From Nostoc sp. T09 (GTDB lineage: Bacteria > Cyanobacteriota > Cyanobacteriia > Cyanobacteriales > Nostocaceae), in assembly GCF_002154695.1 (NCBI RefSeq), contig NZ_MTAV01000014.1:43880-75879 (forward strand): DNA of 32,000 nucleotides, in the 5' to 3' direction. A program made the position numbers and the translations under genes. Below the pieces are notes generated by a model that did no database searches, had not been told where the DNA came from, and saw only the letters and a program-made list of their open reading frames with translations. Of the stretch, positions 4,035 through 23,965 are shown in pieces (position 1 is the first letter of the stretch; each line of letters starts with the position of its first letter).

Positions 4035-4853
4035 TTGAAGACGCTTATTCACCCAACTGCTGTAATTCATCCTAACTCGGAACTCCACCCATCAGTGCAA
4101 GTCGGTGCCTATGCTGTGATTGGAGCGCATGTTAAAGTAGGTCCTGAAACAATAATTGGCGCTCATGTAGTGCTAGAAGGACCCTGTGAAATTGGGGCGC
4201 GAAATCAGATTTTCCCTGGTGCAACTATCGGCATGGAACCCCAGGATCTCAAATATGTGGGAGAACCTACCTGGGTCAAAATTGGTGACAATAACCAAAT
4301 TCGTGAGTACGTCACCATTAACCGCGCTACTGGTGCAGGGGAAGCGACAGTCATTGGCAACGGCAACCTATTGATGGCTTATGTCCATGTGGCTCATAAC
4401 TGCGTTATTGAAGACCATGTGATTATTCCCAACTCCGTAGCGCTCGCGGGTCATGTTCATATAGAATCACGCGCTAGACTAGGCGGGGTTTTGGGAGTCC
4501 ATCAATTTGTGCGTATTGGCAAGCACTCCATGATCGGGGGTATGGCACGTATTGACCGGGATGTGCCGCCATATATGCTTGTAGAGGGAAATCCAGCACG
4601 AGTGCGTACCCTCAACTTGGTAGGGCTAAAACGCTCTGGTATGAACCCGGGCGAGTTGCAAACCCTAAAAAAAGCTTTTCGGATTCTCTATCGCTCTAAC
4701 TTAACCTTTAAAGAGGCTTTGGAACAGCTAGAACTGCTGGGTGATACCGAACAGCTACAACACCTGCGCCGCTTCCTGCTACTTTCTAAGATGCCAGGAA
4801 GACGTGGTTTAATTCCTGGAAAGGGTAGACCAAGCGCTAGTGATGAGTCCTGA
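4035..4853 (+). CDS. lpxA: Acyl-ACP--UDP-N-acetylglucosamine O-acyltransferase LpxA
   Basis: The start is TTG. Left-handed beta-helix hexapeptide repeats are visible (IHPTAVIHPNSELHPSVQVGAYAVIGAHVKVG...), followed by an LpxA-type C-terminal helical domain. Confidence 0.9.
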   Translation: MKTLIHPTAVIHPNSELHPSVQVGAYAVIGAHVKVGPETIIGAHVVLEGPCEIGARNQIFPGATIGMEPQDLKYVGEPTWVKIGDNNQIREYVTINRATGAGEATVIGNGNLLMAYVHVAHNCVIEDHVIIPNSVALAGHVHIESRARLGGVLGVHQFVRIGKHSMIGGMARIDRDVPPYMLVEGNPARVRTLNLVGLKRSGMNPGELQTLKKAFRILYRSNLTFKEALEQLELLGDTEQLQHLRRFLLLSKMPGRRGLIPGKGRPSASDES

Positions 4854-5235: not shown

Positions 5236-6405
5236 ATGCGGATATTTATCAGCACTGGCGAAGTGTCTGGCGATTTGCAAGGTTCTTTACTAATTGCGGC
5301 GCTGAAGCGTCAAGCTGTGGCTGCTGGCTGGGAATTAGAGATTGTGGCACTTGGTGGCGAAAAAATGGCAGAGGTAGGAGCAACGATACTGGGCGATACT
5401 AGTCATATTGGCTCAATGGGTCTTCTAGAAGGCCTGCCTTATCTTGTACCTACTCTCCAGGTACAACGAAAAGCGATCGCCTACTTGAAGCAAAATCCCC
5501 CTGACCTGGTGCTGCTAATTGACTACATGAGTCCAAATCTCGGCATTGGTACCTATATGCAACAGCATTTACCAAAAGTGCCAGTAGTTTATTACATCGC
5601 TCCCCAAGAGTGGGTATGGTCTGTCAGTGTGCGTAACACCAACCGCATTGTCGGGTTTACAAATAAGCTTTTAGCCATCTTCCCCGAAGAAGCCCGTTAT
5701 TTTAGCCAGCAAGGTGCCGACGTTACCTGGGTGGGGCATCCACTAGTCGATCGGATGCAAACTGCCCCCAGTCGCCAGAAAGCCCGCGCTCAATTGGGAA
5801 TTGACCCAGAGACGATCGCGATCGCTCTCCTACCCGCTTCTCGTCGTCAAGAAGTAAAATATCTTTTACCTGTAATTTTTCAAGCTGCCCAAACTATTCA
5901 AGCTAAATTACCAGAGGTGCATTTCTGGATTCCCTTATCTTTAGAAGAATTTAGAAAGCCCATTGCAGCAGGAATTCAGAGTTATGGTTTGCGCGCGACA
6001 ATTGTATCGGGTCAACAAAAAGAAGTTTTTGCTGCTGCTGATTTTGCTATTACCAAATCAGGCACTGTCAACCTGGAACTTGCCCTGTTAAATGTACCGC
6101 AAGTGGTTGTCTATCGCCTAAACCCAATTACAGCTTGGATTGCTCGTAACATCCTTAAAGGTTCTATCCCCTTTGCATCGCCAACCAATTTGCTGGTGAT
6201 GCGGGAAATTGTGCCAGAGTTTTTACAAGAGCAAGCTACAGCAGAGAATATTATCCAAGCCACGATGGAATTACTGCTCAATCCTGATAAGAGACAGCAA
6301 ACCTTAGCAGATTATCAAGAAATGCGGCAGGGTTTGGGAGAATTAGGAGTATGCGATCGCGCTGCTCAAGAAATTTTGCAAATGCTACCGGATATGGGAG
6401 TTTAG
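5236..6405 (+). CDS. lpxB: Lipid-A-disaccharide synthase LpxB
   Basis: The N-terminus MRIFISTGEVSGDLQGSLL, the 389-aa length and the cluster context all fit LpxB. Confidence 0.9.
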   Translation: MRIFISTGEVSGDLQGSLLIAALKRQAVAAGWELEIVALGGEKMAEVGATILGDTSHIGSMGLLEGLPYLVPTLQVQRKAIAYLKQNPPDLVLLIDYMSPNLGIGTYMQQHLPKVPVVYYIAPQEWVWSVSVRNTNRIVGFTNKLLAIFPEEARYFSQQGADVTWVGHPLVDRMQTAPSRQKARAQLGIDPETIAIALLPASRRQEVKYLLPVIFQAAQTIQAKLPEVHFWIPLSLEEFRKPIAAGIQSYGLRATIVSGQQKEVFAAADFAITKSGTVNLELALLNVPQVVVYRLNPITAWIARNILKGSIPFASPTNLLVMREIVPEFLQEQATAENIIQATMELLLNPDKRQQTLADYQEMRQGLGELGVCDRAAQEILQMLPDMGV

Positions 6406-6457: not shown

Positions 6458-6721
6458 ATGGCTCATGAGTTGAGAAAACAACGACCAATCGCAGTTGACT
6501 TGTTCGCCGGTGCAGGTGGGATGACTCTTGGCTTTGAACAAGCTGGCTTTGATGTACTCGCATCGGTGGAAATTGACCCCATTCATTGTGCAATCCACGA
6601 ATTTAACTTTCCCTTCTGGACGGTCTTATGCCAAAGCGTTGTAGACACAACTGGGGATGAAATTAGAAAGCGATCGCAGATTGGCGATCGTGAAATTGAT
6701 GTAGTCATTTGTGGGAGTCCT
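6458..6721 (+). pseudogene. 5' fragment of a DNA (cytosine-5) methyltransferase gene, truncated at motif IV
   Basis: It encodes motif I DLFAGAGGMTLGF and runs to ...VVICGSP. The frame then continues into unrelated AT-rich sequence (YNNNNFILHN...) and stops at 6790. Motifs VI-X are absent. About 60% of residues are identical to the N-terminus of the intact dcm at 12062. Confidence 0.8.
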
Positions 6722-6724
6722 TAT

Positions 6725-6769
6725 AACAACAACAATTTTATATTACACAATTTAGAAAAACAACAACAA
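6725..6769 (+). repeat. Two 11-bp direct repeats AACAACAACAA (6725-6735 and 6759-6769) just inside the left end of the element, upstream of the first recombinase gene
   Basis: Both are exact copies read directly from the sequence. Their position fits arm-type recombinase sites or promoter elements, but the function is untested. Confidence 0.3.
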
Positions 6770-6823
6770 ATAGCTTATTCTTCATGGTAAAGTTACTATA
6801 GTAAAACTTCCACGAAGTAGAAA

Positions 6824-7936
6824 GTGATAAGCCTAGAAAGAGCAATTAATCCTCAAACAGAGGAAAGATTTTGCTGCGTATTTGACACAGAAACTGGCTT
6901 GCCAATAGAACCAATCCAGCGATACTTAAACTACTGCCGTAAGCGTCAATTAGCAGCTAACACAGTTAACACTTATGCTTGTCGATTAGTAGATTTCTGG
7001 CAGTGGCTAGAATATAAATCTCTTAGCTGGCAAGATGTAGGACTCCAAGAACTGGCTGATTTTGTTAACTGGTATCTCCTTGGTGGCGAAGTAGAAGTTA
7101 TCTCCGAAGAAGTACGTGAAATAGTTTCCAAACGTAGCCCAAAAACAGTCAATCAAGCAGTTACAGCTATACAAGGACTCTATGAATTCCACATTGTAGA
7201 AGGTAGGATTGACGAAAAAGTTTTTGCTAAATTGGTTCATGGATGGGGCAAACGAGGTGGCTTCTTACGAGGCATAGTTAAAAGCACCCCAGAAAAACGC
7301 AAACGGATTAAAGTAAAAGAGCCAAAAATATTCCCTGGTTGTCTGACCGACGAACAAGTAGGTCAACTAGCAAATGCCTGTTACAGCTACAGAGACAGGC
7401 TGATAGTCATGCTACTGAGAGAAACGGGATTGCGGAGAGGAGAATTATTAGGCTTACATTTAGTAGACGTACAGGACTTTGATACTAGAGGAAGAATTAG
7501 AGTTGTAAGGCGGGACAATAATCCCAATGGCGCAATAGCTAAAGGCACAGAAAGAGAAATAGCAGTCCTTCATAACAGAGAGTCGGTTCAAGAAACTTTT
7601 CATGCTTATCTATTAGAAGAATATCCCTCAGAAGCAGAAAAACTCGGACATGGGATGCTGTTCGTTAATTTGGATGGCAAGTATATTGGAAAACCCATGA
7701 CCAGTGCAAGGTTAAATAGTCTGTTTTATCAACTAAAAGATCGAACAGGAATTGAAGCACATCCTCATTTATTCAGACATACTTTCGCTACTAGGATGCT
7801 CCAAGCGGGTTATGCAGATCACTACGTACAGCAACTATTAGGGCATAGTTCGATTGTGACTACTAAAGATATCTATTCTCATGTACTGAATGAAATGAGT
7901 CTAGATGCTTATTTATCAGCAGATGAGCAAAAATAA
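6824..7936 (+). CDS. Tyrosine recombinase/integrase, first of three in tandem
   Basis: The start is GTG. Catalytic signatures are GLRRGELLGL (Arg), HPHLFRHTFATRML (H-x-x-R-H) and LLGHSSIVTTKDIYSHV (His...Tyr). There is an N-terminal SAM-like core-binding region. Confidence 0.85.
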   Translation: MISLERAINPQTEERFCCVFDTETGLPIEPIQRYLNYCRKRQLAANTVNTYACRLVDFWQWLEYKSLSWQDVGLQELADFVNWYLLGGEVEVISEEVREIVSKRSPKTVNQAVTAIQGLYEFHIVEGRIDEKVFAKLVHGWGKRGGFLRGIVKSTPEKRKRIKVKEPKIFPGCLTDEQVGQLANACYSYRDRLIVMLLRETGLRRGELLGLHLVDVQDFDTRGRIRVVRRDNNPNGAIAKGTEREIAVLHNRESVQETFHAYLLEEYPSEAEKLGHGMLFVNLDGKYIGKPMTSARLNSLFYQLKDRTGIEAHPHLFRHTFATRMLQAGYADHYVQQLLGHSSIVTTKDIYSHVLNEMSLDAYLSADEQK

Positions 7937-7938
7937 TT

Positions 7939-9381
7939 ATGTTATCTCTAGAAGTCTTAAAAGAAAAGATAGCAAAATCAGAATTGGGACCAAAATGGCT
8001 ATATCTCCCTTTTTTTGAGAGAGATATTTGGTCTCTTGAAGAACTTAGTTACACAGAAGAAGAACGTAAATTTATTGGACACAGCAATCTTTATTTCAAG
8101 GGGTTTTCACTACTTTGGCTTAAGTTGTTGGCAAAATTAACCGTTTTAGCAACCTTTAGACAAAAACAATCATTGGATAATATTAGACATCGAATTACTT
8201 ACTTAAGACAATTGGATGAGTTTTTGATGGCTAAAGGCTATAGTCAGCCAGAAGATTTAACCGATACTCTATTGCGAGAGTATGTATCTCAAAGAATGAC
8301 AAAAGCTCGTCAACAATGTATAGCCTATGCAGTCAAATTATGGGCTGAAGAAGGATGGTTGAAATTAACTTATACTCATTTTAAAATTAAAAAAAAAGTT
8401 CCTAAACTAGAGACAATTCCAGAAGAAGTTCTTTATCAAATTTATGAGAATTTTGATCTTTTCCCACCGCAACTAGAAAGATTATTTAGACTCCAACTTG
8501 TTTTGGGATGTCGCATCGGAGAAATGCTCAGGATACCTCGCCAATGTTTGAAACAAGAAGACGATAAGTGGTTTATGCTGCGTTGGGTAGAGAAACGCAA
8601 ACAATGGCGGTTCTATCAAATTCATTATTTGTTAGCTGAATTGGTTCAAGAGCAACAGAAATTTTTAGATGGTAAATTTGGTGCTAATTCCAAATTTGAT
8701 AAATTGTTTTGTAAAGTTGATGTTTCATCTCATCGTTATAAAGGAAGATTTCACGTAGAGCCAGTTTATCAACCTGAAATTCTATCTTTTGCAACAACTG
8801 CACTTTGGTTAAGTGAATTTCGAGAAGAGGCTGACCTAAAAGATAAACACGGTAATAGATTTAAACTCACTAGCCATCATTTCCGCCGTACTAAAGCTAG
8901 TATCATGGCTTATTGTGAAGCAGAAGATGAATATATTGCTGCGGTTTTAGGTCATGCTTCTTTGGATATGCTGCCACATTATCGTAAGCGTTCTTTAGAG
9001 CGATTGGAGAAAGAGGCTAATTCTCAAGGATATGTCAATAAGTATGGTCAAGTTAGTAGCTTTAAACCTAGAAAACATAGATACGAGAAACTAGCTGAAA
9101 TTTTAAAAGTTAGCACTCCGCTAGGAGAATGCCACCGACCAAGTATATTAGGTGATTGCCAGTCCCGTTATGCCTGTCTAAGTTGCGATCACCATCGAGT
9201 TACTCTAGATGACAAGGCTAAGTTAGAGGCTGATTGCGAAAGCTTACAACAAGATTTAGAGCAAGCAAAAACTGTAGGGCAAGAAAGAAGAATTACTGAA
9301 ATTAATCGATTAATAGATTTGCTTAAAGTTCGATTAAAAGGCTTAGTAGAACTACAAAATTTGAAGATGGATGCAATATAA
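7939..9381 (+). CDS. Tyrosine recombinase, second of three, with a C-terminal Cys/His cluster
   Basis: Signatures are LGCRIGEML (Arg), TSHHFRRTKAS (H-x-x-R) and VLGHASLDMLPHYRK (His...Tyr). The C-terminus has CHRPSILGDCQSRYACLSCDHH followed by a coiled coil. It starts 2 nt after the upstream stop. Confidence 0.8.
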   Translation: MLSLEVLKEKIAKSELGPKWLYLPFFERDIWSLEELSYTEEERKFIGHSNLYFKGFSLLWLKLLAKLTVLATFRQKQSLDNIRHRITYLRQLDEFLMAKGYSQPEDLTDTLLREYVSQRMTKARQQCIAYAVKLWAEEGWLKLTYTHFKIKKKVPKLETIPEEVLYQIYENFDLFPPQLERLFRLQLVLGCRIGEMLRIPRQCLKQEDDKWFMLRWVEKRKQWRFYQIHYLLAELVQEQQKFLDGKFGANSKFDKLFCKVDVSSHRYKGRFHVEPVYQPEILSFATTALWLSEFREEADLKDKHGNRFKLTSHHFRRTKASIMAYCEAEDEYIAAVLGHASLDMLPHYRKRSLERLEKEANSQGYVNKYGQVSSFKPRKHRYEKLAEILKVSTPLGECHRPSILGDCQSRYACLSCDHHRVTLDDKAKLEADCESLQQDLEQAKTVGQERRITEINRLIDLLKVRLKGLVELQNLKMDAI

Positions 9382-11198
9382 TGACTCAACAGATATCTAA
9401 TACAATTTCTATTCATCCTACTTTATATGGACAATTAGAAGTAGATTGGAATAAAGAATATCAAGGTGAATTTATTTGCCCCAATTGTCAGAAAACCAAT
9501 CTGAAGAAAACTTCCTATAAAGAAAATTCAATATGTAAACTTAGATTTATTTGTAATACCTGCAATAAACGGATCTCTCTGACTTGTCTAGTTCCTGCCT
9601 TTATTTACAAATACCGCTCTGATATAGAATGTCCCAACCCACTTTGTACTCAATTAGGACATGATGGGCAAAAAGGATGGATATATACAATAAGAAATAT
9701 ATATGAACAGTGTAAATGTCGCTATTGCGGTGTTGGCTTTGAGCCTCAATCAACTGCCGCATCAAGCTGGGTTAATAGGACAACGGAAGGTCAATTATTA
9801 CCTTTTTGTTTTGAGGATGACATTTGGTATTTAAGACATTTCTACGATAATCCTTTTCCGCAATCAATTAGTTTTCAAAACATATCGCCGCAATGGTATC
9901 TATTAGAAGTTAAAAAATATATTCAATATTTACTCAAATCTAGAGTGTATTCTTCACCATCAGGAGTTAGACATACTCTAACAAATTTAAAGCAATTTGG
10001 AAAAATTCTAGACACTTATAAAATAAAACAAACTGCTGATATCAGTCGCGAAGCTGTACTCAGATTTTTAGATAATTACAAAAATTGCGATAACAAAACA
10101 ATCAATCATAAATTAAGCTACATAAAATCTTTTTTTGAATGGTTAGAACTTGATGCATCACACCTAATTCGTAGCCGTGATTACCTTAAAGAATCAAAAA
10201 ATGATGCTGACTGGTTGGATGAAGTAACGCGCACATCTATTAAAGAACATTTGTCGAAAATTCCTGCACCTATTGCTCGCCATTACCTGGTACAGGAGTA
10301 CACTGCTGCTCGTCCAGGAGATATTTGCCAATTAATTTTTGATTGCTTAGTAGAGGAAAATAGCAAATGGTATATCAAATTCTATCAACATAAAACTAAG
10401 CGTTGGCATCAAGTACCTGCTACCCGTGAAATTAGGCAATTAATTGAGGAACAACAACAATGGATAAGACAAGAAATTGGTCTAGAATATTCATATTTAT
10501 TTTGTCATTTCAGGAATATCAGGATCAAAAATTACCCTACTTTTACTACTATGAAGCCTTTGCCAATACCACCTCCGTTAACTATAAATGATAATAGGAT
10601 GGTAGCCATTATTCGTTTACTGATAGAAAAAGAAGACATCCGTGATGCTAATGGGCAGAGACCCCACTTCACAGGTAAAATCACTCGCCATAACAGGTTA
10701 CAAGAAGTACGAGTAAAACATGGTATTGAAGCTGCTCAACTTTATGCTGACCATGTTAGAAGTACTACTACTTTTCAAAACTATACACCTCCTACTAGAG
10801 AACAAGTAGCAGCAGTAGACTTGCCTTTTCAGGAACTGTTAATGAACCTGGATAACAAGTTCCTCCCTTGGCAATCTTTGCCAGAAAGCCTACTCAACAA
10901 CCCTAAAGCACACGAACTCGATCTCGAAATTGCACCACGCTTAGTGGTCTATGGACACTGTGCCCTCGACCCGAAAACGCCCTGTCCTGTTAATCTTTAC
11001 CCCAAATGCTATGGCTGTTCCAGTTTTCGCCCTAGCACTGGTAAATTACCTCTCTATGAACGTCAATATAACGGAGAACAACAAAGACTAACTGAAGCAG
11101 AACAAGCTGGTGCAGAATTAGCAAAAGAAGAAGCCAAAGCCACCATCGAGGCGATGGATAAATGGCTACCAGAACTAAGAAATTTAGCACATGGCTAA
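9381..11198 (+). CDS. Large tyrosine recombinase, third of three, with N-terminal zinc-ribbon-like Cys pairs
   Basis: The start overlaps the upstream stop (TAATG). N-terminal Cys pairs are CPNCQK...CNTCNK and CPNPLC...CRYCG. The catalytic-domain candidates are TAARPGDICQL (Arg), KITRHNR (K-x-x-R-H) and ADHVRSTTTFQNY (His...Tyr). There is a C-terminal Cys cluster CALDPKTPCPVNLYPKCYGC. Confidence 0.7.
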   Translation: MTQQISNTISIHPTLYGQLEVDWNKEYQGEFICPNCQKTNLKKTSYKENSICKLRFICNTCNKRISLTCLVPAFIYKYRSDIECPNPLCTQLGHDGQKGWIYTIRNIYEQCKCRYCGVGFEPQSTAASSWVNRTTEGQLLPFCFEDDIWYLRHFYDNPFPQSISFQNISPQWYLLEVKKYIQYLLKSRVYSSPSGVRHTLTNLKQFGKILDTYKIKQTADISREAVLRFLDNYKNCDNKTINHKLSYIKSFFEWLELDASHLIRSRDYLKESKNDADWLDEVTRTSIKEHLSKIPAPIARHYLVQEYTAARPGDICQLIFDCLVEENSKWYIKFYQHKTKRWHQVPATREIRQLIEEQQQWIRQEIGLEYSYLFCHFRNIRIKNYPTFTTMKPLPIPPPLTINDNRMVAIIRLLIEKEDIRDANGQRPHFTGKITRHNRLQEVRVKHGIEAAQLYADHVRSTTTFQNYTPPTREQVAAVDLPFQELLMNLDNKFLPWQSLPESLLNNPKAHELDLEIAPRLVVYGHCALDPKTPCPVNLYPKCYGCSSFRPSTGKLPLYERQYNGEQQRLTEAEQAGAELAKEEAKATIEAMDKWLPELRNLAHG

Positions 11199-12072
11199 AA
11201 AACATAATCGCGATAAACAAGCTGAAGTTCTGCGTCGTACTCAAGCTCAAAGAAAGGAACAAAAAAAAGAACAAGTATTAAAAGCTATTAAAGTAATACT
11301 TGATCAAAAACAGCCATTGACATTTGCAAAGATTGCTAATGTTTCTGGCTGTTCTATTTCTTATCTCTATAAATGGGATGAGATTAAGGCATATATCCAC
11401 GAACTTCAACAGGAAAAGGAGACTAAACTAAATCCCTTAGAAGAAAAAGACCCAAGACCCCATAGCCTTAAAACTCTACATGAAGTTGCTAGGCAAAGAA
11501 TTAGAGAACTGGAAGCGGAGATTAGGGAACTCAAACACCAGAATGAAAAACTCAGAGGTCATGTCGCAGAAATCTATGAACTTAAAGATGAGTGCGATCG
11601 CCTACGATCGCAGTTACGAGAGAAAGCTTCTGCTGATTCATCGACAAAGATAATTTCCTTAAGAATAAATAAACCTGAGACAAGTTCCTCTACACCTGAT
11701 ATACCTAAACCCAGTGAAGTTCATACTGCTGATATTCAACTAGAAGACTCGGATATCTTTCAATTAATTAACGAAATGGGGATTAAGATGAATTCAAAAC
11801 TAAAGCAAGAAATAGCAAGTCGTGAATATCATAAAGTTAAGTTATCAATTGAAGCTTTTCAAGAGTATCGTAGTAAAACTGATATAGAGAATCCTGCTGC
11901 TTGCTTACTAACCATGATACGTGATGAAGCAAAGCCTAATATCCCCGAAGGATCGACACTTAAACCATCAAGTAAATCTTCAGTTGCTATGCATAATAAT
12001 CAAAAAAAATTAATTTCTCACGATAAGCTCAAACAACTTAGCAAGTTATTTAACGAAAAGAATGAAGAGTAA
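11191..12072 (+). CDS. HTH plus coiled-coil accessory protein of the recombinase module, in the position of ginD/tnpC
   Basis: It overlaps the upstream gene by 8 nt and the downstream dcm by 11 nt. Features are a basic N-terminus, a probable HTH (LTFAKIANVSGCSISYLYKW) and a heptad-rich stretch (IRELEAEIRELKHQNEKLRGHVAEIYELKDECDRLRSQLRE). The function is inferred from position only. Confidence 0.45.
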   Translation: MAKKHNRDKQAEVLRRTQAQRKEQKKEQVLKAIKVILDQKQPLTFAKIANVSGCSISYLYKWDEIKAYIHELQQEKETKLNPLEEKDPRPHSLKTLHEVARQRIRELEAEIRELKHQNEKLRGHVAEIYELKDECDRLRSQLREKASADSSTKIISLRINKPETSSSTPDIPKPSEVHTADIQLEDSDIFQLINEMGIKMNSKLKQEIASREYHKVKLSIEAFQEYRSKTDIENPAACLLTMIRDEAKPNIPEGSTLKPSSKSSVAMHNNQKKLISHDKLKQLSKLFNEKNEE

Positions 12073-13339
12073 GCTAAAAAGACCAATAGCAATAGATCTA
12101 TTTGCTGGTGCGGGAGGGCTAAGTTTAGGATTTGAGCAAGCTGGATTTGATGTAAAAGCTGCTGTTGAAATCGATCCAGTTCATGCTGCTGTTCATAAGT
12201 TTAATTTTCCTTATTGCGTTGTATTACCTTGTTCGATCACTGAGTTATCAGGGAAAGATATTCGAGAAAGAAGTGGAATTGGCAACCAAAATATAGAAAT
12301 TATTATTTCTGGGTCTCCCTGCCAAGGTTACTCCTATATGGGTCGTCGAGTATTAGACGATCCAAGAAATTTTTTAGTAAAAGATTTTATAAGATTAGTC
12401 TTAGAGCTAAAGCCTTCTTATTTCGTTTTTGAAAACGTCAAAGGTTTTACAGTTAGTAAATATCAATCATTTTTAGATGAATTAATTGAAACTTTCAGTA
12501 ATAATAATTATCAAATCTGTTTACCCTGGAAAGTCCTTAATGCTGCTTATTATGGAATACCACAAAAGAGAGAAAGACTATTTCTAATTGGTGCAAAGAA
12601 AGGTTGTGTCTTGCCTGAGTATCCTGCTCCATGTAGCCAACCACTTTTTGCAAAGTTAGCCAATCCTATCTTACCTCCTACTCCATCTTGTTGGGATGCC
12701 CTCAAAGATTTACCAGAAGCAGAAGAATTTGAGGAATTACTATATAGTGATTGCGTAGAAACGGGACAATGGAGCAATCCCAGCCACTATGGGCGAGAAA
12801 TGAGATGTTTAGATGATAGTAGCTGGCATTTTGGCTATAGGAGAAATTGGAATCCCTTTCTTTTGACTTCTAGCATAAGAACTAATCATTCGCCAATCTC
12901 ACGAGCTAGATTTCATGCCACAGTACAGGGAAAGAAAGAACCTGTTTCTCACTTCTTCAAATTGGCACAAGATGGCATAGCTAATACCTTAAGGGCAGGA
13001 ACTGATGCTGCTCATGGCTCACACACATCTCCAAGACCTATTCATTACAGTAGTCCTCGCTGTATTACTGTACGAGAAATGGCACGATTACATGGGTTTC
13101 CTGATTGGTTTCGTTTTCACATCACAAAATGGCATGGTGCGAGACAGGTAGGAAATTCAGTTCCGCCACCATTGGCGAGAGCAATTGGTACAGAAATTAT
13201 GAAATGTTTGGGAATGAATCCAACTACTCCTGAAGATGTTTTGGATCTGGGAGATCCCAAACTTTTATCAATGACTATGAAACAAGCTGCAAATTATTGG
13301 CAGCTTACTATACCAACTAAAGATATTATCAATGTCTAA
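12062..13339 (+). CDS. dcm: DNA (cytosine-5)-methyltransferase, intact
   Basis: All key m5C-MTase motifs are present: I DLFAGAGGLSLGF, IV GSPCQGYS, VI ENVKG, VIII QKRERLFLIG, IX TVREMARLHGFPDWF and X GNSVPPPLA. Confidence 0.9.
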   Translation: MKSKLKRPIAIDLFAGAGGLSLGFEQAGFDVKAAVEIDPVHAAVHKFNFPYCVVLPCSITELSGKDIRERSGIGNQNIEIIISGSPCQGYSYMGRRVLDDPRNFLVKDFIRLVLELKPSYFVFENVKGFTVSKYQSFLDELIETFSNNNYQICLPWKVLNAAYYGIPQKRERLFLIGAKKGCVLPEYPAPCSQPLFAKLANPILPPTPSCWDALKDLPEAEEFEELLYSDCVETGQWSNPSHYGREMRCLDDSSWHFGYRRNWNPFLLTSSIRTNHSPISRARFHATVQGKKEPVSHFFKLAQDGIANTLRAGTDAAHGSHTSPRPIHYSSPRCITVREMARLHGFPDWFRFHITKWHGARQVGNSVPPPLARAIGTEIMKCLGMNPTTPEDVLDLGDPKLLSMTMKQAANYWQLTIPTKDIINV

Positions 13340-14645
13340 GAGTAACCAGTTTTTAGGAAACTTAGAAGCAGAAGAAGCCATACTAGGGGGTATCTTACTT
13401 GACCCTAATGCTATTAGCATAGTTGCTAATATTCTTCCTGTAGAGGCTTTTGGTACTCATGGTAATCAACAAATTTATAAGGCAGCTTTAGAGTTATATC
13501 AAAATAATAAGCAAACAGATTTAATGACTATTTCTACTTGGTTGTCAGACCATAAAGTATTAGAAAAAATAGGAGGTAATAATAAACTATCTCAACTTCT
13601 TACCCGTACTGTATCAGCAGTAAATATAGACCATTATGCTGCCCTAGTACTGGATAAATACCAACGCCGTCAATTAGTAGCAGTAGGACATACCATAGTT
13701 GATTTAGGTTGCGATACTAGCATTGAATTAGAACAAGTATTTGAGCAATCTGAACAAAAACTATTTAATCTCACAACTAACAAGAAAGCTAGATTTCAAC
13801 CCAAACCTATTCATGAGTGTTTAGCTAATGTCCTGAATAAGATAGAGCAAGGTTCATCTCCTGCTTATCCTACGGGTTTAGTAGACTTAGATGCTCTCAT
13901 TGGTGGCTTAATTAAACAAGACTTGATTGTGGTTGCTGCTAGACCATCTATGGGTAAAAGCTGGTTCGGCTGTTATCTGACTAATTATATTGCAAGCAGT
14001 ATTCAGAAGCCAGTATTGTTCTTTAGTGCAGAGATGTCTGAGGAACAACTGACTAAAAGATTCCTCTCTATGCACACAGGTATTGATTCCCAAAGACTCA
14101 TGCACAATCAAATTTATGAGGAGGAATATGATTCTTTAGTACAAGGTTTATCTAATCTAGGTAAACTGCCCATTATCATTGATGATACTCCAGCAAGTGA
14201 ATTAACTCCCACTAAAATTCGTTCTGCACTTCGTAGAATAGAATCTGAAAGAGGAGAGTTAGGATTAGTAGTATTAGACTACATTCAAAAGCTTGGAGAT
14301 AGAGCAGCAGGTAATAGAGCGCAAGCAATTGGTAAATATTGTGGTGCTTGTAAGGATATTGCTAAAACCTTCAATGTCCCATTTGTAGTTCTGGCTCAAA
14401 TTAATCGTGGTGTAGAAGGTCAAAGTAATAAACGTCCTTCTATGGCTGATATAAAGGACTCTGGCGATATTGAACAGGACATGGACTTAGGACTACTACT
14501 TTATCGAGATGAATATTACAACTCGAATACTAGCGATCAAGGAATTATGGAGATAATAGTCGCTAAAAATAGAAATGGTATAACAGATACTTGTAAGGTG
14601 GTGTTTGACCCTAGTATTGGTAACTTCTCTGATTACAAAAATTAG
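13332..14645 (+). CDS. DnaB-family replicative DNA helicase, element-borne paralogue
   Basis: It has a DnaB N-terminal domain (EAEEAILGGILLDP), Walker A ARPSMGKSWF, Walker B LVVLDYIQ and LAQINRGVE...DIKDSGDIEQDMD. It overlaps the dcm stop by 8 nt. No intein is present. Confidence 0.85.
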   Translation: MSKSNQFLGNLEAEEAILGGILLDPNAISIVANILPVEAFGTHGNQQIYKAALELYQNNKQTDLMTISTWLSDHKVLEKIGGNNKLSQLLTRTVSAVNIDHYAALVLDKYQRRQLVAVGHTIVDLGCDTSIELEQVFEQSEQKLFNLTTNKKARFQPKPIHECLANVLNKIEQGSSPAYPTGLVDLDALIGGLIKQDLIVVAARPSMGKSWFGCYLTNYIASSIQKPVLFFSAEMSEEQLTKRFLSMHTGIDSQRLMHNQIYEEEYDSLVQGLSNLGKLPIIIDDTPASELTPTKIRSALRRIESERGELGLVVLDYIQKLGDRAAGNRAQAIGKYCGACKDIAKTFNVPFVVLAQINRGVEGQSNKRPSMADIKDSGDIEQDMDLGLLLYRDEYYNSNTSDQGIMEIIVAKNRNGITDTCKVVFDPSIGNFSDYKN

Positions 14646-14784
14646 CTAAATCATGAAACTGTAGGATTTAATGTGGAAGTCACCCAGTACAAGAGTAAAA
14701 GCGATCGCATCCCATAATCTTTTCTTTCCCTCACGCGAGCCAATTTTTACAAAATAATTCTATTTATTGGAAGACTGTCAGTCT

Positions 14785-17700
14785 TTAGCTAGCATCTTGT
14801 GTCAACCTATGATATACCTTCTCTAGTATCCAGTCCTTCACTGCTCCGCCAAATTCTTTGTCATCTATAATTTTCGCAAATATATCTTGGTTTAAATCCA
14901 TGCGCTCAATCAGTTTTGTGAGAAAAATATCCTCAAATCCATATTTGAAGTTCTGAATTGAGTTGCTTTTAGCTTGTTGTGATAGTACTTCATCTTGAAC
15001 TAATGCTTCCTCAATTTGGCTAAAAAAGTATTTATCTGCTTCCGTAAAATCGGTACGAAATCTTTGGTTGAGGATGTCTATAATTTCTGAGAGTTTAGCT
15101 TGTGTCTCTTTTTCTCTAGGTATGCCAGCTTCAGTTATTGGTTGCAGATGTGATTCTGCATTTTTTTCTAAGACAATTCTACCTTCTCTGATTTTTTGTA
15201 ATCGATAATATTCCAGTGCAACTTCATCAGTGAGTTTAAAAACTTCGCTTTGGCTGCGTTTTGGTAATTTAGTTTGCAGTAGACGAGCAAAAGCATAGAA
15301 TTTTTCTAGTTCTTCATCTGCAAAGGGCATAATCTGGGACAAGAAAGCATATAGCCTGATGAATGTAGTTAAACTATTTTTAAATTCATCTTGTTGTTCT
15401 TCGCCTAATGCCTTAAAACGGTCAACAGCAGGATCAACTAGGGAATGAAGCCTACTGTGATCTTGCTTGTTTGTCTTTTCCTGAGATTTAAAAAATACCT
15501 GCGTGAAAGCATCTACATCGCTATTCCAAATGATTTGGTAGCTATCTAGCCTATTTTTTAAGTCATATAGTCGGTTAGGATCTGTGGTTGATGCTAGTGT
15601 AGTTTGTTCATAATAAAGCTGGAAAGCATCAATAATTTCTTGCTCTGAATTAGCAAAATCTAAAACAAAGGTATCTTCTTTGCCTGAAAAAGTGCGATTC
15701 AAGCGAGATAAAGTTTGTACGGCTTTGACTCCAGACAGTTTTTTATCCACGTACATGGTGTGTAACAATGGCTGGTCAAAACCAGTTTGATACTTGTCTG
15801 CGACAATCAAGAGTTGATATTCACCAGACTCAAACTTTTCCGGTAATTCCCGTTCACCAAAACCGTTGAGATCATATTCAGTGTATTTAATAGCTGTTTC
15901 TCGATCAGTGAAACTGGTAAAAGCTACCAATGCTTTGATATCAACATAACCTTGCTTTCTTAAATAGTTATCAAATTCTTCTTTATAGCGCACTACGTGA
16001 GGACGAGAAGCAGTAACTACCATTGCCTTTGCTTTTCCACCAATTTTGTGCATGACGCATTGGCGAAAATGTTCGATGATCACTTCAGTTTTTTGAGCTA
16101 AGTTATGTGGATGCAGAGATAAAAACCTGGCTATAGCCCGACTTGCTTTCTTCGCATTAATTTTAGGGTCATCTGCGATCGCTTTAGAAATTTGGAAATA
16201 AGTTTTATAGGTTGTGTAATTCTGCAACACATCCATAATGAACCCTTCTTCAATTGCTTGGCGCATGGAATACAAATGAAAGGGTTCTGGAAGACCTTGG
16301 GCATTAATTTGACCAAATTCTTCCAAGGTTTTTTGCTTTGGTGTGGCAGTGAAAGCAAAGAAGCTCAAGTTCGGTTGTTTACCACGAATATGCATCTCTT
16401 TGCGGATATTGTCTTCAATATCTTCTTCTTCTGTCATGCTTTCCTCTTTAGCTGAACGGCTGAGGTCATTGACAGAAAGGACTTCTTTCATTTTCTTGGA
16501 TGCTTCGCCACTTTGAGAACTATGGGCTTCATCCACTATTAAAGCGTAATTGCGTTTTGGTAGTTGGGCAATGTTGTTTTTTTCTAAGATTTCCCGAATC
16601 TTATCCAAGACGAAAGGAAATTTTTGCAAGGTAGTAATAACAATATTAGTTCCAGAAACCAAAGCTTCGGCTAGTTGGGTAGAGTTTTTATCAATTTTTT
16701 GCACAACACCTTGCTTATGCTCAAATTGATAAATTGTGTCTTGTAGCTGCTGATCTAGTACCCTCCTATCAGTGATAACGATGACTAAATCAAAAACTCG
16801 CTCATTTTGGTTGTTGTATAAACTAGCAAGTTGATATGCTAACCAGGCAATGGAGTTACTTTTGCCACTACCAGCAGAATGCTGAATTAGGTAATCATGT
16901 CCTGGTCCCTTAACTTTTGCATCTGCGGTCAACTTGCGAACCACATCTAATTGGTGAAATCGAGGGAATATAAGGGTTTCTTTTTTGGCGGATTTACCAT
17001 TGAGTTTAATGTTTTGCTGCTCAAGGTGCAAAAAACGACCCACGATGTCTAGCCAACTGTCTTTCGCCCATATATCTTCCCAGAGATAGGCGGTTTTGTA
17101 GCCGTTGGGGTTGGGAGGGTTGCCTGCACCTTTGTTGAAGCCTTTGTTGAATGGTAGAAAGCGGGTATTACTACCTTCAATGCGGGTAGTCATCCAGACT
17201 TCATCCGGGTCTACAGCAAAATGTACCAAAGTACGACGCTTAAATTGAAATAATAAATCTCGGTTATCCCGGTCTTGGATATACTGGCGCTTGGCTTTAT
17301 CTACATCTTGTCTGGTAAATTGGTTTTTTAGTTCTACTGTGGCGACTGGCAAACCATTGATACTTAACAGTAGATCTATTGAGTTTCCATGTTGATCACT
17401 GTAGTGTACCTGACGAGTTACTGTGAGGATATTTTGGTTATAAAGTACTAGAGTATCGGGGTTTAGTCCACTTGCGGGTTTGAAGAATGCTAATTTGAAG
17501 CGTACACTGTAGTCAATGATACCATATCGCAGTACATCTAACATCCCACGATTATTCAATTCTTGATACAGCCTTTGCATGAACTTAGGTTCAACCTCAG
17601 CACCATGAATGTCTGTCAGATGTTGCCATGCTTCCATCTGAGAAGTTTGAATAAACCTCAGTAGAGTGGCTTGATCGAGTGCTAGTTCTTGAATAAAATT

Positions 17701-17796
17701 GCTAGCATACCCTTCTTCATAGCCACCATTACTTAATAAGCTGGCAATGATTGCATTTTCAAAAGCTTTTTCGGTTGTCTGAACAGTTGCAGTCAT
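14785..17796 (-). CDS. hsdR: Type I restriction enzyme R subunit (HsdR)
   Basis: The protein is 1003 aa. SF2 helicase motifs are QHSAGSGKSNS (I), IVDEAHSSQ (II, DEAH), FTATP (III) and QTLSRLNR (VI). There is an N-terminal nuclease-type region. The start overlaps the upstream stop (ATGA). Confidence 0.9.
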   Translation of the reverse strand: MTATVQTTEKAFENAIIASLLSNGGYEEGYASNFIQELALDQATLLRFIQTSQMEAWQHLTDIHGAEVEPKFMQRLYQELNNRGMLDVLRYGIIDYSVRFKLAFFKPASGLNPDTLVLYNQNILTVTRQVHYSDQHGNSIDLLLSINGLPVATVELKNQFTRQDVDKAKRQYIQDRDNRDLLFQFKRRTLVHFAVDPDEVWMTTRIEGSNTRFLPFNKGFNKGAGNPPNPNGYKTAYLWEDIWAKDSWLDIVGRFLHLEQQNIKLNGKSAKKETLIFPRFHQLDVVRKLTADAKVKGPGHDYLIQHSAGSGKSNSIAWLAYQLASLYNNQNERVFDLVIVITDRRVLDQQLQDTIYQFEHKQGVVQKIDKNSTQLAEALVSGTNIVITTLQKFPFVLDKIREILEKNNIAQLPKRNYALIVDEAHSSQSGEASKKMKEVLSVNDLSRSAKEESMTEEEDIEDNIRKEMHIRGKQPNLSFFAFTATPKQKTLEEFGQINAQGLPEPFHLYSMRQAIEEGFIMDVLQNYTTYKTYFQISKAIADDPKINAKKASRAIARFLSLHPHNLAQKTEVIIEHFRQCVMHKIGGKAKAMVVTASRPHVVRYKEEFDNYLRKQGYVDIKALVAFTSFTDRETAIKYTEYDLNGFGERELPEKFESGEYQLLIVADKYQTGFDQPLLHTMYVDKKLSGVKAVQTLSRLNRTFSGKEDTFVLDFANSEQEIIDAFQLYYEQTTLASTTDPNRLYDLKNRLDSYQIIWNSDVDAFTQVFFKSQEKTNKQDHSRLHSLVDPAVDRFKALGEEQQDEFKNSLTTFIRLYAFLSQIMPFADEELEKFYAFARLLQTKLPKRSQSEVFKLTDEVALEYYRLQKIREGRIVLEKNAESHLQPITEAGIPREKETQAKLSEIIDILNQRFRTDFTEADKYFFSQIEEALVQDEVLSQQAKSNSIQNFKYGFEDIFLTKLIERMDLNQDIFAKIIDDKEFGGAVKDWILEKVYHRLTQDAS

Positions 17797-18785
17797 AGTT
17801 GTGCCTCGGTCTGTTCAATTATTTTTACAGTATTTAAGAATTGCTCATAGGCAACCTGACGGAGGATTTCTTGTAATTTGCCCCTTTGAAATTCATTTAA
17901 ATCTAACTTGAGATTATCCTCTTCGTTGTAGCAAAGGTTGACAAAAGTGATTTCATCGGTATGTAAAAATTTTGCTACATCTGGTTTTTTATCAGGCAGA
18001 TTGTTAATTAATTCGCAGGTATCTGGGTCAAAATACAGATGCACTAAATTTTGAATGCCAACAACAGGGCGACCTTGATAGTGGGGCTTGCCATCACTAG
18101 ATTGCCACAGAACACCAAAGACTTTGCAATTTCCAGAACGGTAGACTTTCCCGATTTGTGGTGCACCTCTAATACTAGATGAGGGTCGTGAAGTATCCCG
18201 AATTTTTCTGATGAGTAGTTTTAAGGGTTGCATATCTAGCTTGATATCTGTCATCCCCACAACTTCATAAAGTTCTAAAATCAAATCGTCACTTTCAATA
18301 TCTCCAATAAAGCAGACTGGCTCAGAATCATCTAGATAGCAACGTTCGGCTGTAAATACTTCTACTTTTAGATCATAGAACAGTCGCCAAACATAAAACT
18401 CACTGGTTTGCCAGCGCCAACCCCCGAATATAAATTGAGCTTCACTTCTCGCTTCATCGTAGTTTGGGCGGTTAATTTCACTGAGATCAATGGCTTGAGC
18501 AAGATCAGTAAAGAGAGCTTTTGTGTGGTTGAGGATGTCTAATAAATCTGTCTGCGGATTTTTCAGAGCAGGAGAAGTATTGATTGTCTGAATTAGGTTG
18601 AGAATCATGGGGTATGCACGATTGGTTTCTCCTGCAAAACAGATGAAACAGTCTCTGCGGGGCAATTCAAAAAGTTTTACTCCCGCTTCCCATCGTTCAC
18701 CCGCAGAAAGACAACTATCGGTTGCAAATACTAATTCTTGATCGCCTGTCGGTGTATGACGTACCCAGGCTGCACATAAAGTCAT
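17793..18785 (-). CDS. Uncharacterised 330-aa protein embedded in the type I R-M operon. The N-terminal ~185 aa resemble the HslV/proteasome-beta Ntn-hydrolase fold, and the C-terminal ~145 aa are unassigned.
   Basis: ATGA overlaps link it to both hsdS (18782-18785) and hsdR (17793-17796). The pattern MT-LCAAWV...LVFATDSCLSAGE...GVKLFEL...FICFAGETNRAY...VCFIGDIESDD parallels E. coli HslV MTTIVSV...VVIAGDGQAT...VKKVRRL...IAGFAGGTADAF...IAIGSGGPYA, recalled from memory. The gene call is solid and the fold call is inference. Confidence 0.55.
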   Translation of the reverse strand: MTLCAAWVRHTPTGDQELVFATDSCLSAGERWEAGVKLFELPRRDCFICFAGETNRAYPMILNLIQTINTSPALKNPQTDLLDILNHTKALFTDLAQAIDLSEINRPNYDEARSEAQFIFGGWRWQTSEFYVWRLFYDLKVEVFTAERCYLDDSEPVCFIGDIESDDLILELYEVVGMTDIKLDMQPLKLLIRKIRDTSRPSSSIRGAPQIGKVYRSGNCKVFGVLWQSSDGKPHYQGRPVVGIQNLVHLYFDPDTCELINNLPDKKPDVAKFLHTDEITFVNLCYNEEDNLKLDLNEFQRGKLQEILRQVAYEQFLNTVKIIEQTEAQL

Positions 18786-20104
18786 GCAGTAACCTCCTCC
18801 CTAACATCAATTTTGCCTGTTACTGCTGCTGTGATAAGGGTCTGGCGATATTCTTGCAGTTTTTCTATAGTTTCCTTGTTTTTAGTAATAATTTTGTCAA
18901 TCATTACTGTTGACTTTTGAATAAATGAAACAATATCCTCTTGTTCTTTATAAGGTGGTTCAACAATTGGTAAGGTTTGCAAGATAGGAACGCTTAAATT
19001 AACTTGTGCTGATCCCCAACCTTCAACTGTAAAGAATGACTGAGCAAATGAGGAGTTAATATAATAACTATAAAAGAGGGGAAATTGCTGAGGATTAAGT
19101 GTAGCTATTAGTAAAGTAAAACATTGAGCATGATTTAGTTCTTCAGGAACTACAGCAGTCATGCCAGCGTTTGCACCTGTGCGAACAGTCAAAATATCTC
19201 CTTTACGAAGATACTTAGAGCGATTTTTTTCTGCAAACCACTCCTCAATATAAAGAATATCGCTGAAATCAATATAATTTTTTTTTACATTACCAGAGCG
19301 AACGATAGGAACTCCTTGGAGTGTATAAGCGTGAGTTGCTGCTTCTGCAATTCCGACTTCAATACGTGATGTAACACGTTTAAAAATTTTTACTCGCCAA
19401 TGTTCAGGAACTTCACCAATCCCAGAAATACCAGAATCTTTCATCGGAACATTTGGGTTTAGCCCTTTGGTTACAGCTTGGTTAATCAGAGCATTGCGTT
19501 TTTCTTCGAGTAGTTCGATGAGACGTTGTTTTTTGTCAATAAGGGTAGCGATCGCAACAGTTTTGCGATCAAGGAAAGAGGCGATTGCACTTTGCTGCTC
19601 AAGAGGAAGCACAGGAATAGAAATTGAACCAATCTCAGAGGCATTAGTTGCTGGGTAACTCACTCCAATAGAACGAGCACATATTTCATCAACTACAAAA
19701 CTAGAACGCATCCAGTAATATAGGTAACGAGGATTTAGTATATTGCCTATTGGAGAAAGAACAGCAAATCCTGTTGAGGCAATTAGGCTGGGATTATTCT
19801 CTTCAACATAGCTAATGGCTTTCAGGTATGTTCTAACAGTAGAAACAATCGTGTCTCCTTGAATCACTTTTCGTCTTGCTCTTGATGGTGAATTCTCGAA
19901 AACGAATTCACTCATTTGTAAGATTTTTCCAGTAGAATCAACGCTTCCAATATCTATGTATTTTATGGGAAAATCGGACGGAGTTGATTCCGGTAGAGTT
20001 TTTGCATTAATTTGAGTTACATACTTCAATGGCATTAAGGTAACTGATTTTTCTAAGTCTCCAAGCCATAGAAGATTTCGGTCACAGCTAACTAAGGCTT
20101 TCAT
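18782..20104 (-). CDS. hsdS: Type I R-M specificity subunit (HsdS)
   Basis: The protein is 440 aa with two variable target-recognition halves. These are separated and followed by the conserved helical spacers LIELLEEKRNALINQAVTKGL and IEKLQEYRQTLITAAVTGKIDV. Confidence 0.85.
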   Translation of the reverse strand: MKALVSCDRNLLWLGDLEKSVTLMPLKYVTQINAKTLPESTPSDFPIKYIDIGSVDSTGKILQMSEFVFENSPSRARRKVIQGDTIVSTVRTYLKAISYVEENNPSLIASTGFAVLSPIGNILNPRYLYYWMRSSFVVDEICARSIGVSYPATNASEIGSISIPVLPLEQQSAIASFLDRKTVAIATLIDKKQRLIELLEEKRNALINQAVTKGLNPNVPMKDSGISGIGEVPEHWRVKIFKRVTSRIEVGIAEAATHAYTLQGVPIVRSGNVKKNYIDFSDILYIEEWFAEKNRSKYLRKGDILTVRTGANAGMTAVVPEELNHAQCFTLLIATLNPQQFPLFYSYYINSSFAQSFFTVEGWGSAQVNLSVPILQTLPIVEPPYKEQEDIVSFIQKSTVMIDKIITKNKETIEKLQEYRQTLITAAVTGKIDVREEVTA

Positions 20105-20106
20105 GG

Positions 20107-22188: not shown

Positions 22189-22233
22189 TCACAACTCCAC
22201 GGTAGACTAATTATCTGTCATATTTAGCAGTAC

Positions 22234-22267
22234 TTAGCACAAACAATTTTTAGTCGTGTTGTGCTAA
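22234..22267. promoter_or_regulatory. Inverted repeat TTAGCACAAACA / TGTTGTGCTAA in the hsdM upstream region
   Basis: The 11-12 bp arms are 11 nt apart and lie 46-79 bp upstream of the hsdM start on the minus strand. This could be an operator or a 5'-UTR hairpin. It is untested. Confidence 0.25.
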
Positions 22268-22351
22268 ATGTATTCATGGTCAAATTACACAACTAATCCT
22301 CTAACTAATCTGTATGTGCTGCCAAATTGTCCATTATCTAGTAAACCATTA

Positions 22352-22957: not shown

Positions 22958-23147
22958 ACCCTTTCACCGCAAGACAAGATTCATGCTGAAGTCTTTTTTA
23001 ACACATATGAAAGTTAAAATTGCTGAAATTGCAGTAATCCTTTATGGCGGGAATCACAATCTCGACTTTGCGATCGCATTTTTATCAACAGCAACGCAAA
23101 ATTCAGATTATCTAAAGGAGACTCAATTTCACTCCAAATCCTTATAG

Positions 23148-23198
23148 TTTGTAAACTGTAGTAGCTCAAAATTTTATATTTTGTTTACTGCTGTAGCT
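23148..23198 (+). promoter_or_regulatory. Two imperfect 19-bp direct repeats (TTTGTAAACTGTAGTAGCT / TTTGTTTACTGCTGTAGCT) just upstream of the XRE gene; candidate operators
   Basis: The copies match at 15 of 19 positions and are spaced 32 bp start to start. They lie in the divergent intergenic region between the membrane-protein gene and the XRE gene. Confidence 0.3.
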
Positions 23199-23203
23199 AT
23201 TAT

Positions 23204-23497: not shown

Positions 23498-23624
23498 AGT
23501 TTTGAATATTCTTCTTGTTATTAGCTACTAAAGTATCTAATATATTTGATGAAATCAAAAAGACGATCGTCCTCCGGCAAGAGTATGCGATCGCCTTTTA
23601 AACCCCGTTAATGAGGTTACTTAA

Positions 23625-23927: not shown

Positions 23928-23965
23928 TACGTAATTACTTTTTATACATCAATTTTCCATCACCT

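Follow-up and report, generated by a model that had tools for sequence, protein, structure and literature searches.

The window analysed here is a stretch of 32,000 nucleotides (nt) from Nostoc sp. T09, in which the host genes lpxA (4035-4853) and lpxB (5236-6405, + strand) are followed by the first 88 codons of a 5-cytosine methyltransferase gene, dcm (6458-6721, +), by a 17,421-bp integrative element (6722-24142, +) and, from 24143, by sequence that is not dcm. The element, which has a GC content of 0.375 and is poor in HIP1 sites, begins with six closely packed genes on the + strand (rec1-rec2-rec3-ORF4-dcm-dnaB), separated by gaps or overlaps of a few nt. They encode three proteins with a recombinase fold, a DUF6262 protein, a complete methyltransferase of 425 amino acids (aa) and a DnaB-like helicase. 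The severed host gene and the complete gene of the element (12062-13339, +) are termed type A and type B dcm, respectively. The region 6722-24142 very probably represents a site-specific element with multiple tyrosine recombinases, which targets motif IV of dcm genes and carries type B dcm as a likely rescue. A first-pass annotation of this DNA, whose span ended at 13339 and covered about one-third of the element, had offered three readings without choosing among them; its core is upheld here, whereas the insertion module of three recombinases and a TnpC-like protein had been missed.

The open reading frame (ORF) at 6458-6790 comprises 110 codons, of which only the first 88 resemble a C-5 cytosine methyltransferase. 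It matches PF00145 at profile positions 4-70 (E = 3.4e-12), and over 88 aa the fragment shares 57% of its residues with the N-terminus encoded by the intact gene (E = 2e-36), close to the value of about 60% estimated previously. The fragment 6458-6721 contains motif I up to the Pro of motif IV and nothing further; as described in the first-pass annotation, homology is lost after ...VVICGSP at 6721, one codon short of the catalytic Cys, while the intact gene reads ...IIISGSPCQGYS at the equivalent point. The last 22 codons of the ORF (YNNNNFILHNLEKQQQIAYSSW) are read-through into the AT-rich end of the element. The fragment has a GC content of 0.466, a GC content at third codon positions (GC3) of 0.398 and a HIP1 site at 6667-6683, and is thus host-like, since GC3 is 0.40-0.43 in lpxA and lpxB (0.40 in lpxB). 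No second C-terminal half of a dcm gene was found in the whole window by tblastn with the intact protein, in agreement with the earlier claim that the host 3' half is missing. Judged from the sequence, type A dcm is inactivated, with its S-adenosylmethionine-binding N-terminus parted from the catalytic cysteine by the insertion.

Junctions of the element in dcm genes

The gene after lpxB is uninterrupted in many relatives. A metagenome scan anchored on the C-terminal half of type A yielded 20 loci in which type A lies intact directly downstream of lpxB (LpxB 65-83% identical to that of the window), and locus L003 has the same arrangement. As well, dozens of named Nostocales have full-length type A genes, among them Calothrix sp. 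NIES-2098, the LpxB of which falls in the same 90% cluster as the window LpxB. The gene at this locus encodes about 420 aa in the relatives, and no conserved stand-alone gene corresponds to the 88-codon ORF, a possibility which the first-pass annotation had kept in sight. The unoccupied site reads ATT TGT GGC TCA CCA TGT CAA GG. The order lpxC-fabZ-lpxA-lpxB-dcm is conserved, with lpxB as synteny anchor (PF02684-type LpxB neighbours in relatives), whereas the genes to the right of dcm differ among L003, Mojavia (L005), L008/L021, L023 and the window, except for an SBP gene common to L008 and L021; the DNA right of dcm is a synteny breakpoint. In Scytonema sp. CRU_2_7 (L004, 4065-4394), a type A 5' region with 91% nt identity, uninterrupted through GSPCQGFS, adjoins a Uma2 gene and not lpxB. 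As only a lead, type A may be an orthologue of the cyanobacterial orphan methyltransferase DmtC/M.Ssp6803I (Anabaena DmtC, slr0214), which methylates CGATCG and with which its near-universal vertical distribution in Nostocales would fit (PMC4390886).

The same element end, TATAACAACAAC, abuts the Pro codon of motif IV in four dcm backgrounds, that is, in the window and in three others. With a slash marking the edge of the element, the left junction reads GGG AGT CCT/TATAAC in the window, GGT AGT CCT/ in a related genome (L001, flank 77-82% identical), GGC TCA CCT/ in a metagenome-assembled genome (MAG) of Mojavia pulchra (L005-7) and GGT GCG CCA/ in a metagenome contig (L002). In the last of these, the broken dcm is only 65% identical to the window fragment, and the same six-gene operon follows the junction with about 72% nt identity. 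Because the same junction is present in three further, different dcm genes, its position is not due to chance. The L001 contig stops 109 bp inside the element, and the L006 and L007 contigs begin at the fragment; such breaks of short-read assemblies at or near the element ends could stem from multiple copies, or from occupied and empty sites occurring together. A search with a short protein query gave no match longer than 154 aa, and only four of the matches had a YNNNN tail. Most short dcm "fragments" were rejected as insertions, being genes cut by contig ends, and 20 viral-contig loci matching the left-end or right-end patterns were regarded as chance matches, none of which encoded an element protein.

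In their host DNA, the window and Mojavia share 89% of nt in lpxA, 82% in lpxB and 83% in the type A fragment, the last being a host-like divergence, while the element genes other than rec2 are 94-97% identical. The element is less diverged than its hosts and, therefore, moved between lineages after they had split, entering the same codon each time. The gene rec2 is 90% identical in nt and 84% in aa between the two copies (L005, 5878-7320), compared with about 96% for rec1, rec3 and ORF4, which suggests mosaic recombination within the module.

A complete pair of junctions is visible in Mojavia L005, where a type A 3' half (349 codons, NPPCQGFS..., ...NPPCQGFSLIGKR...) lies directly after the right end of the element. 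The left attachment junction (attL) reads CTCACCT/TATAAC and the right one (attR) reads TATAA/TCCACCC/TGTCAAGG and, with one more letter on its left, CTATAA/TCCACCC/TGTCAAGGG. The local 7-mer thus remains to the left of the element, and a different 7-mer stands to the right, so that there is no true target duplication. This second 7-mer, TCCACCC, matches exactly the 7 nt that stand before TGT where a dcm gene encodes GGPPCQ, as in L059 (GGT CCA CCC TGT), so that the dcm codon contexts entered amount to four that are seen and a fifth that is deduced from the footprint. According to previous studies, Tn554, Tn552-II and the strand-biased elements carry 6-7 nt of the donor left flank in their circle, and these nt end up at the right junction (PMC12486829, PMC10214605). 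As the footprint 7-mer is foreign to the L005 locus, a Tn554-like route is suggested, on the strength of one complete pair.

In the mechanism that is proposed, the attachment site would be the DNA encoding motif IV (G-x-P/C-Q-G) of 5-cytosine methyltransferase genes, and the lpxB-linked type A dcm would have been entered between the Pro and Cys codons. The element would most likely move as a circular intermediate with 6-7 nt copied from the left flank of the donor, as in the route of Tn554 and the strand-biased elements, the joined ends of the circle being predicted to read ...GGAATAnnTATAA + 7 nt + TATAACAACAAC... After integration, the footprint would come to lie between the right end of the element and the right half of the target. 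We infer the recombination chemistry and the circular form by analogy with these elements.

On the right side of the window, the element is followed by sequence without dcm similarity (GCGGGGATGGGAAAACG..., 24143-24368) and by host-like genes from 24369 (HIP1 0.89/kb). The same right junction is present in an independent Logan assembly (L025), and it meets the element terminus to within one nucleotide; this exactness argues for a recombinase-mediated event rather than a random deletion. The host 3' half may have been lost or displaced, for example, through recombination of attR with a secondary site or through exchange between copies, and a later event, exact to the right end, would have removed or displaced it. 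No type A 3' half attributable to the window genome was found, and among the best protein matches only the 3' half of Mojavia itself and P0273 stood out by a fragment-like length. The latter (JGI, 1228-bp contig) is a 329-aa type A protein with an internal Met start (MGKRIFDDPRN...) a few residues past CQGFS, and may represent another split gene. A search for the right flank of the window in relatives found it in the same genome only, and deletion and translocation are not separable by synteny.

The element-borne dcm and the fate of the resident gene

Motifs I (FxGxG), IV (PCQ), VI (ENV), VIII (QxRxR) and X (GNSV) are all present in type B dcm (PF00145, E = 4e-65). Its 5' part has a GC content of 0.369 and a GC3 of 0.188, its 3' part 0.384 and 0.252, and the neighbouring element genes have a GC3 of 0.24-0.30. 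The compositional difference from the fragment and the equally AT-rich remainder of the gene, which the first-pass annotation had reported, are both borne out by these values. The same holds for its argument that the intact gene is wholly foreign, as there is no host-like 3' half, no break at motif IV by GC3 or by phylogeny, and a single phylogenetic type, the gene being type B throughout.

Type A and type B are 53% identical and form a deep split in the tree. They align over their full length with short gaps only and have many invariant residues in common across the variable recognition region, which makes the same or a similar specificity plausible. Type B dcm shares 11 nt with the end of ORF4 and 8 nt with the start of the DnaB gene, and occupies the slot between these two genes in the window, in Mojavia (L005-7), in L002 and in a Nostoc sp. 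P12650 MAG (L018); the window and L002 copies are 70% identical, having diverged in step with the module. The operon of overlapping genes would most likely express type B and keep the genome methylated, a "target-gene-like" rescue. Of the earlier proposal that the element targets the PCQ-coding sequence and replaces the function it destroys, the targeting is supported by the same end at the same codon in four dcm backgrounds, with dcm-less relatives inserted elsewhere, whereas the replacement of type A function by type B is something we infer from their alignment through the recognition region.

When genomes were scanned with ORF4, nine more elements came to light in cyanobacteria. Their ends and recombination genes are the same, dnaB comes immediately after ORF4 with no dcm in between, and none of the nine is inserted in a dcm gene. 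Conversely, all elements which carry dcm between ORF4 and dnaB and have a visible left junction sit in dcm. One dcm-less relative (L011, around 5400-5476) is inserted at the end of a large ORF, after ...QSLGRT; the resemblance of this target to helicase motif VI (QxxGRxxR) hints that other members may also target motif-coding DNA. The idea that dcm-less relatives target dnaB was dropped as unsupported, their left flanks being heterogeneous.

Full-length type B genes also stand alone after lpxB in Desmonostoc muscorum (L008, 10028-11299), CP170991 (L021, 10113-11374) and Goleter apudmare (L023, 10001-11272). They show 83-86% protein identity to the element copy and an element-like GC3 of 0.25-0.28 amid neighbours of 0.35-0.46, and no element remnants flank them at these three loci. 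The Goleter gene is chimeric: it is type A at its first seven diagnostic sites, changes over within motif I and is type B at all but one of the following 35. In L018 (1-3330), a decayed element retains type B dcm as an intact 425-codon ORF, its only intact core gene, while a deletion has joined aa 411 of rec2 to aa 479 of rec3, ORF4 carries a frameshift and dnaB breaks off after 30 nt. Other members of the type B clade are solitary chromosomal genes at unrelated loci. The lone genes, the chimera and the L018 copy would fit replacement of the ancestral gene by that of the element. On this basis we tentatively consider it possible, without favouring it, that the element is a methyltransferase-gene homing island, which recognises the near-universal PCQ-coding DNA, enters divergent 5-methylcytosine (m5C) methyltransferase genes and, by bringing a paralogue that probably has the specificity of its target, may in the end take the place of the ancestral orphan methyltransferase of its host for good.

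Several observations weigh against a dcm-targeting element with its own rescue gene. The likeness between the attL and attR repeats is weak (TCACCT vs CCACCC), with 6-7 imperfect nt. The window copy is without the expected attR flank, and the next 7 nt, GCGGGGA, do not resemble a dcm footprint. No circular junction or excision product was seen, and the catalytic competence of rec3 is uncertain from its residues. Moreover, the dcm carriers seem to be one clade (rec3 is 68% identical to that of L002, compared with 59-64% to the rest) and, therefore, the link between carriage and targeting rests on essentially one evolutionary event and offers no statistical argument.

The flow may also have run in the reverse direction, which we regard as rather doubtful. 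Type B would then be a native chromosomal allele or paralogue of Nostocales from which the Nostocales lineage of the element took or refreshed its dcm, and the lpxB-linked type B genes would be independent of the element. The type B tree roughly tracks taxonomy (Nostocaceae, Fischerella, Pleurocapsales), the L002 copy is nearest to a solitary chromosomal gene (P0149, 77%), and the lpxB-linked genes are free of element remnants. However, type A is widespread at the lpxB site across cyanobacteria with LpxB only 65-83% identical, and the lpxB-linked type B genes keep their low GC3 (0.25-0.28) amid neighbours of 0.35-0.46. In addition, the passage from A to B within the Goleter gene shows replacement at the locus, and the L018 element is decaying around an intact type B.

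A further, unlikely reading accepts the targeting as real but takes the dcm of the element for ordinary cargo, serving self-protection against restriction, addiction or phage defence, with its kinship to the target an accident of one capture. Such a history would suit the co-occurrence of carriage and targeting in what is probably a single clade, the frequent presence of orphan methyltransferases and restriction-modification systems on islands, and the solitary type B members at unrelated loci. Yet type B dcm is kept in the recombination operon with overlapping frames, has kept pace with the module in its divergence (70% identity of the window and L002 copies) and is intact in L018 where the recombinases decay. 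Its alignment with type A also runs through the recognition region with short gaps only, and in three genomes type B occupies the lpxB locus by itself, one of these genes being an A/B chimera.

The earlier suggestion of a small element at 6721-12317, which supplies a replacement 5' end and leaves the intact gene as an element 5' part joined to a host 3' part, draws on the homology of the N-termini and on the in-frame GSP-CQG fusion left when 6722-12316 is deleted, but it is extremely improbable, because the 3' part has an element-like GC3 of 0.25, the whole gene is type B without the breakpoint at motif IV that would favour it, the same complete gene occupies the same slot in L002, and homology with Mojavia is unbroken over 6481-14677 and resumes over 22352-24142, so that the element ends at 24142 and the type A 3' half of Mojavia lies beyond that end. 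The suggestion that the 88-codon fragment is a relic of an earlier, displaced island can be set aside with similar assurance: the 91% identical 5' region beside Uma2 in Scytonema sp. CRU_2_7 means that the gene is not immobile across cyanobacteria, but the fragment has a host-like GC3, its 83% identity to Mojavia is a host-like divergence, and it belongs to the resident lpxB-linked gene, orthologues of which follow lpxB immediately and uninterrupted in 20 related loci and many named Nostocales.

Anatomy of the element

The ends of the element were set by comparison with Mojavia L005 and not by repeats, since a search for attachment-site repeats inside the window gave chance-level pairs only. 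Homology between the window and L005 extends over 6481-14677 and again over 22352-24142, and the two diverge at 24142 (...ACATTGTGGAATAGATATAA), while the left terminus TATAACAACAA is common to all family members found (13 loci). HIP1 density is 0.34/kb in the element, compared with 1.04 and 0.89 in the flanks. The left end (6722-6823, +; GC 0.245) has the terminus TATAACAACAACAA, a subterminal repeat TTACACAATTTA at 6743-6754, a second AACAACAACAA at 6759 and TTCCACGAAGTAG near 6808. The right end, up to 24142, has an inverted copy, TTCCACAATGTA, at 24122-24133 (- strand) and the terminus ...GATATAA, with a GC content of 0.256 in the last 215 bp. The 12-nt motif thus stands near both ends in inverted orientation (TTACACAATTTA, TTCCACAATGTA); the match itself is at chance level and is of note for its position and orientation alone.

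The first recombinase gene, rec1 (6824-7936, +), encodes a 370-aa tyrosine recombinase (PF00589, E = 5e-30), which is XerA/C/D-like in NCBIfam, below the cut-offs. It is followed by rec2 (7939-9381, +), encoding a 480-aa tyrosine recombinase with a Cys-rich C-terminus (PF00589, E = 1.5e-7), and by rec3 (9381-11198, +), encoding a 605-aa recombinase-fold protein with an N-terminal Zn-ribbon module, a SAM-like core-binding domain and a divergent catalytic domain (PF02899, E = 2e-8; PF00589, E = 4e-6). ORF4 (11191-12072, +) encodes a 293-aa DUF6262 protein of the Tn554 TnpC family (PF19776, E = 1.4e-11, 45 bits against a cut-off of 29), and the gaps or overlaps within 6824-12072 are 2, 1 and 8 nt. 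All 11 relatives keep the three recombinase-fold genes. Across 11 aligned homologues, the residues R..HxxR..H..Y are invariant in rec1 and rec2, and rec3 keeps R, R, H and Y, with the first His variable. Sequence searches of the PDB with rec2 and rec3 gave no useful match. The Zn-ribbon of rec3 (ISIHxTLxGxLxVDW..CPxC..CKL..C..C; 9381-9600) is single in the window and occurs as two to five tandem copies in relatives with other targets (L016, 7354-8190; L126, 11573-12400); it may serve as a site-recognition module.

The DnaB-like helicase gene (13332-14645, +; PF03796, PF00772; TIGR00665, E = 2e-133) is a core gene of the element family. It is followed by variable cargo on the - strand (14678-22351), a type I restriction-modification system with hsdR (14785-17796), hsdS (18782-20104), hsdM (20107-22188) and a gene of unknown function (17793-18785) encoding 330 aa without a family match. 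The slot between dnaB and the gene of the 201-aa protein shows no homology between the window and L005, where Mojavia carries a 773-aa R and a 520-aa M subunit gene (L005, 12616-16651). Different type I sets in copies that are otherwise 94-97% identical look like cassette exchange. The conserved right module (22352-24142, +), with 95.5% nt identity to L005, comprises the 201-aa protein gene (22352-22957, -), a helix-turn-helix protein gene (23204-23497), a 100-aa protein gene (23625-23927) and the AT-rich right end.

Relation to known multi-recombinase elements

In its architecture, the element resembles the GInts (ginABCD), genomic islands with three integrases (Bardaji et al. 2017, PMC5385486). 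The likeness lies in an operon at one end, which encodes three tyrosine-recombinase-like proteins and a small fourth one, with recombinases 1 and 2 fully catalytic and the third deviating. The cargo begins at the stop of the fourth gene (here the first 11 nt of dcm lie within ORF4), the opposite end is short and rich in AT (GC 0.256 over the last 215 bp), entry is site-specific and into protein-coding genes, and restriction-modification cargo is common. The repeats of GInts are imperfect and 10-17 nt long, compared with 6-7 imperfect nt here in the sole complete pair (L005). GInts excise as a circle, for which all four of their genes are needed. Unlike GInts, which are described from Proteobacteria, Verrucomicrobia, Bacteroidetes and Firmicutes, the present element is cyanobacterial, its fourth protein is a 293-aa DUF6262 protein, a DnaB-like helicase belongs to its core, its third protein has Zn-ribbon repeats, and its target is an internal catalytic motif and not a gene end, with a paralogue of the target on board.

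ORF4 sits where GinD, Srap and TnpC sit in their respective elements, and DUF6262 corresponds to TnpC of a Listeria Tn554-like transposon (PMC11947258). With Tn554, the element shares this TnpC-family protein, one ordinary and one large recombinase, asymmetric ends and an attachment sequence of 6-7 nt that is brought along, and the closest precedent for type B dcm is the target-gene-like gene of the Tn552-II/Tn553 kind: in Tn552-II a target-homologous gene lies right after tnpABC and was proposed by the authors to rescue the target (PMC12486829). However, Tn554-type elements have only TnpA (about 360 aa) and TnpB (about 630 aa) as recombinases instead of three, reside in Staphylococcus and Enterococcus, target radC or yolD-like genes, measure 6-9 kb and have no helicase. 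The strand-biased elements (intA-tfp-intB-srap; PMC10214605) resemble the present one in the order of four genes, which encode an ordinary recombinase, a recombinase-fold protein, a large recombinase and a small TnpC-like protein, and in the 6-nt left-flank footprint, the target specificity and the lack of conjugation genes, but they are confined to Gammaproteobacteria, and their middle protein is without the catalytic R-H-R-Y, whereas rec2 keeps R, HxxR, H and Y.

For the recombination module, no named NCBIfam family came near its cut-off, the faint matches being GmtY of the gamma-mobile-trio (41.9 bits against 340) and VPA1267 (17 against 90). RIT elements also have three recombinases, of 315-410 aa and all with the catalytic Tyr, together with 34-bp terminal inverted repeats and no fourth gene; the present element differs in having proteins of 370, 480 and 605 aa, a fourth gene of the DUF6262 family, and only short 12-nt inverted motifs at unequal distances from the ends. 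Insertion into a conserved gene is known from other islands as well, and SXT inserts in prfC and repairs the gene it enters. Islands that integrate in dusA (PMC4482086) and phages with attachment sites within genes likewise enter conserved genes without loss of function, but there a short replacement end is fused to the host gene, whereas here the host gene stays broken and a whole paralogue is supplied. Developmentally excised heterocyst elements were dropped from the comparison, as neither their recombinases nor their target fit.

ORF4 compared by tblastn with 72,556 plasmids gave cyanobacterial matches only. A module of two recombinases, a large integrase and a DUF6262 protein (ORF4 about 55% identical) is carried by plasmids of Nostoc, Brasilonema and Anabaena (CP030123, NZ_CP026690 (L126), NZ_AP025734/5 and NZ_CP011457), with no dcm or dnaB adjoining. 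In the literature searched, no description was found of this cyanobacterial element family or of an element that targets motif IV.

The element raises the questions of how three recombinase-fold proteins read a coding motif, and whether, in Nostocales, such elements drive the replacement of orphan methyltransferases and changes in the methylome, HIP1-associated methylation among them. It also raises the prospect of the module as a programmable integrase for a site that is present in most bacteria. By its gene content and order, the element would be of the GInt, strand-biased or Tn554 kind; it has the architecture of a GInt and the TnpC-family protein of Tn554, and departs from Tn554 in its number of recombinases, from the strand-biased elements in its catalytically complete middle protein and from RIT elements in all the features named above. 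It extends the poorly understood multi-recombinase class to cyanobacteria with a family that offers clean, comparable junctions, empty sites and a visible footprint. With the catalytic codons of a conserved orphan DNA methyltransferase as its target, it is also, beside Tn552-II, a second and independent example, and a much clearer one, of an element bearing a homologue of the gene that it disrupts.

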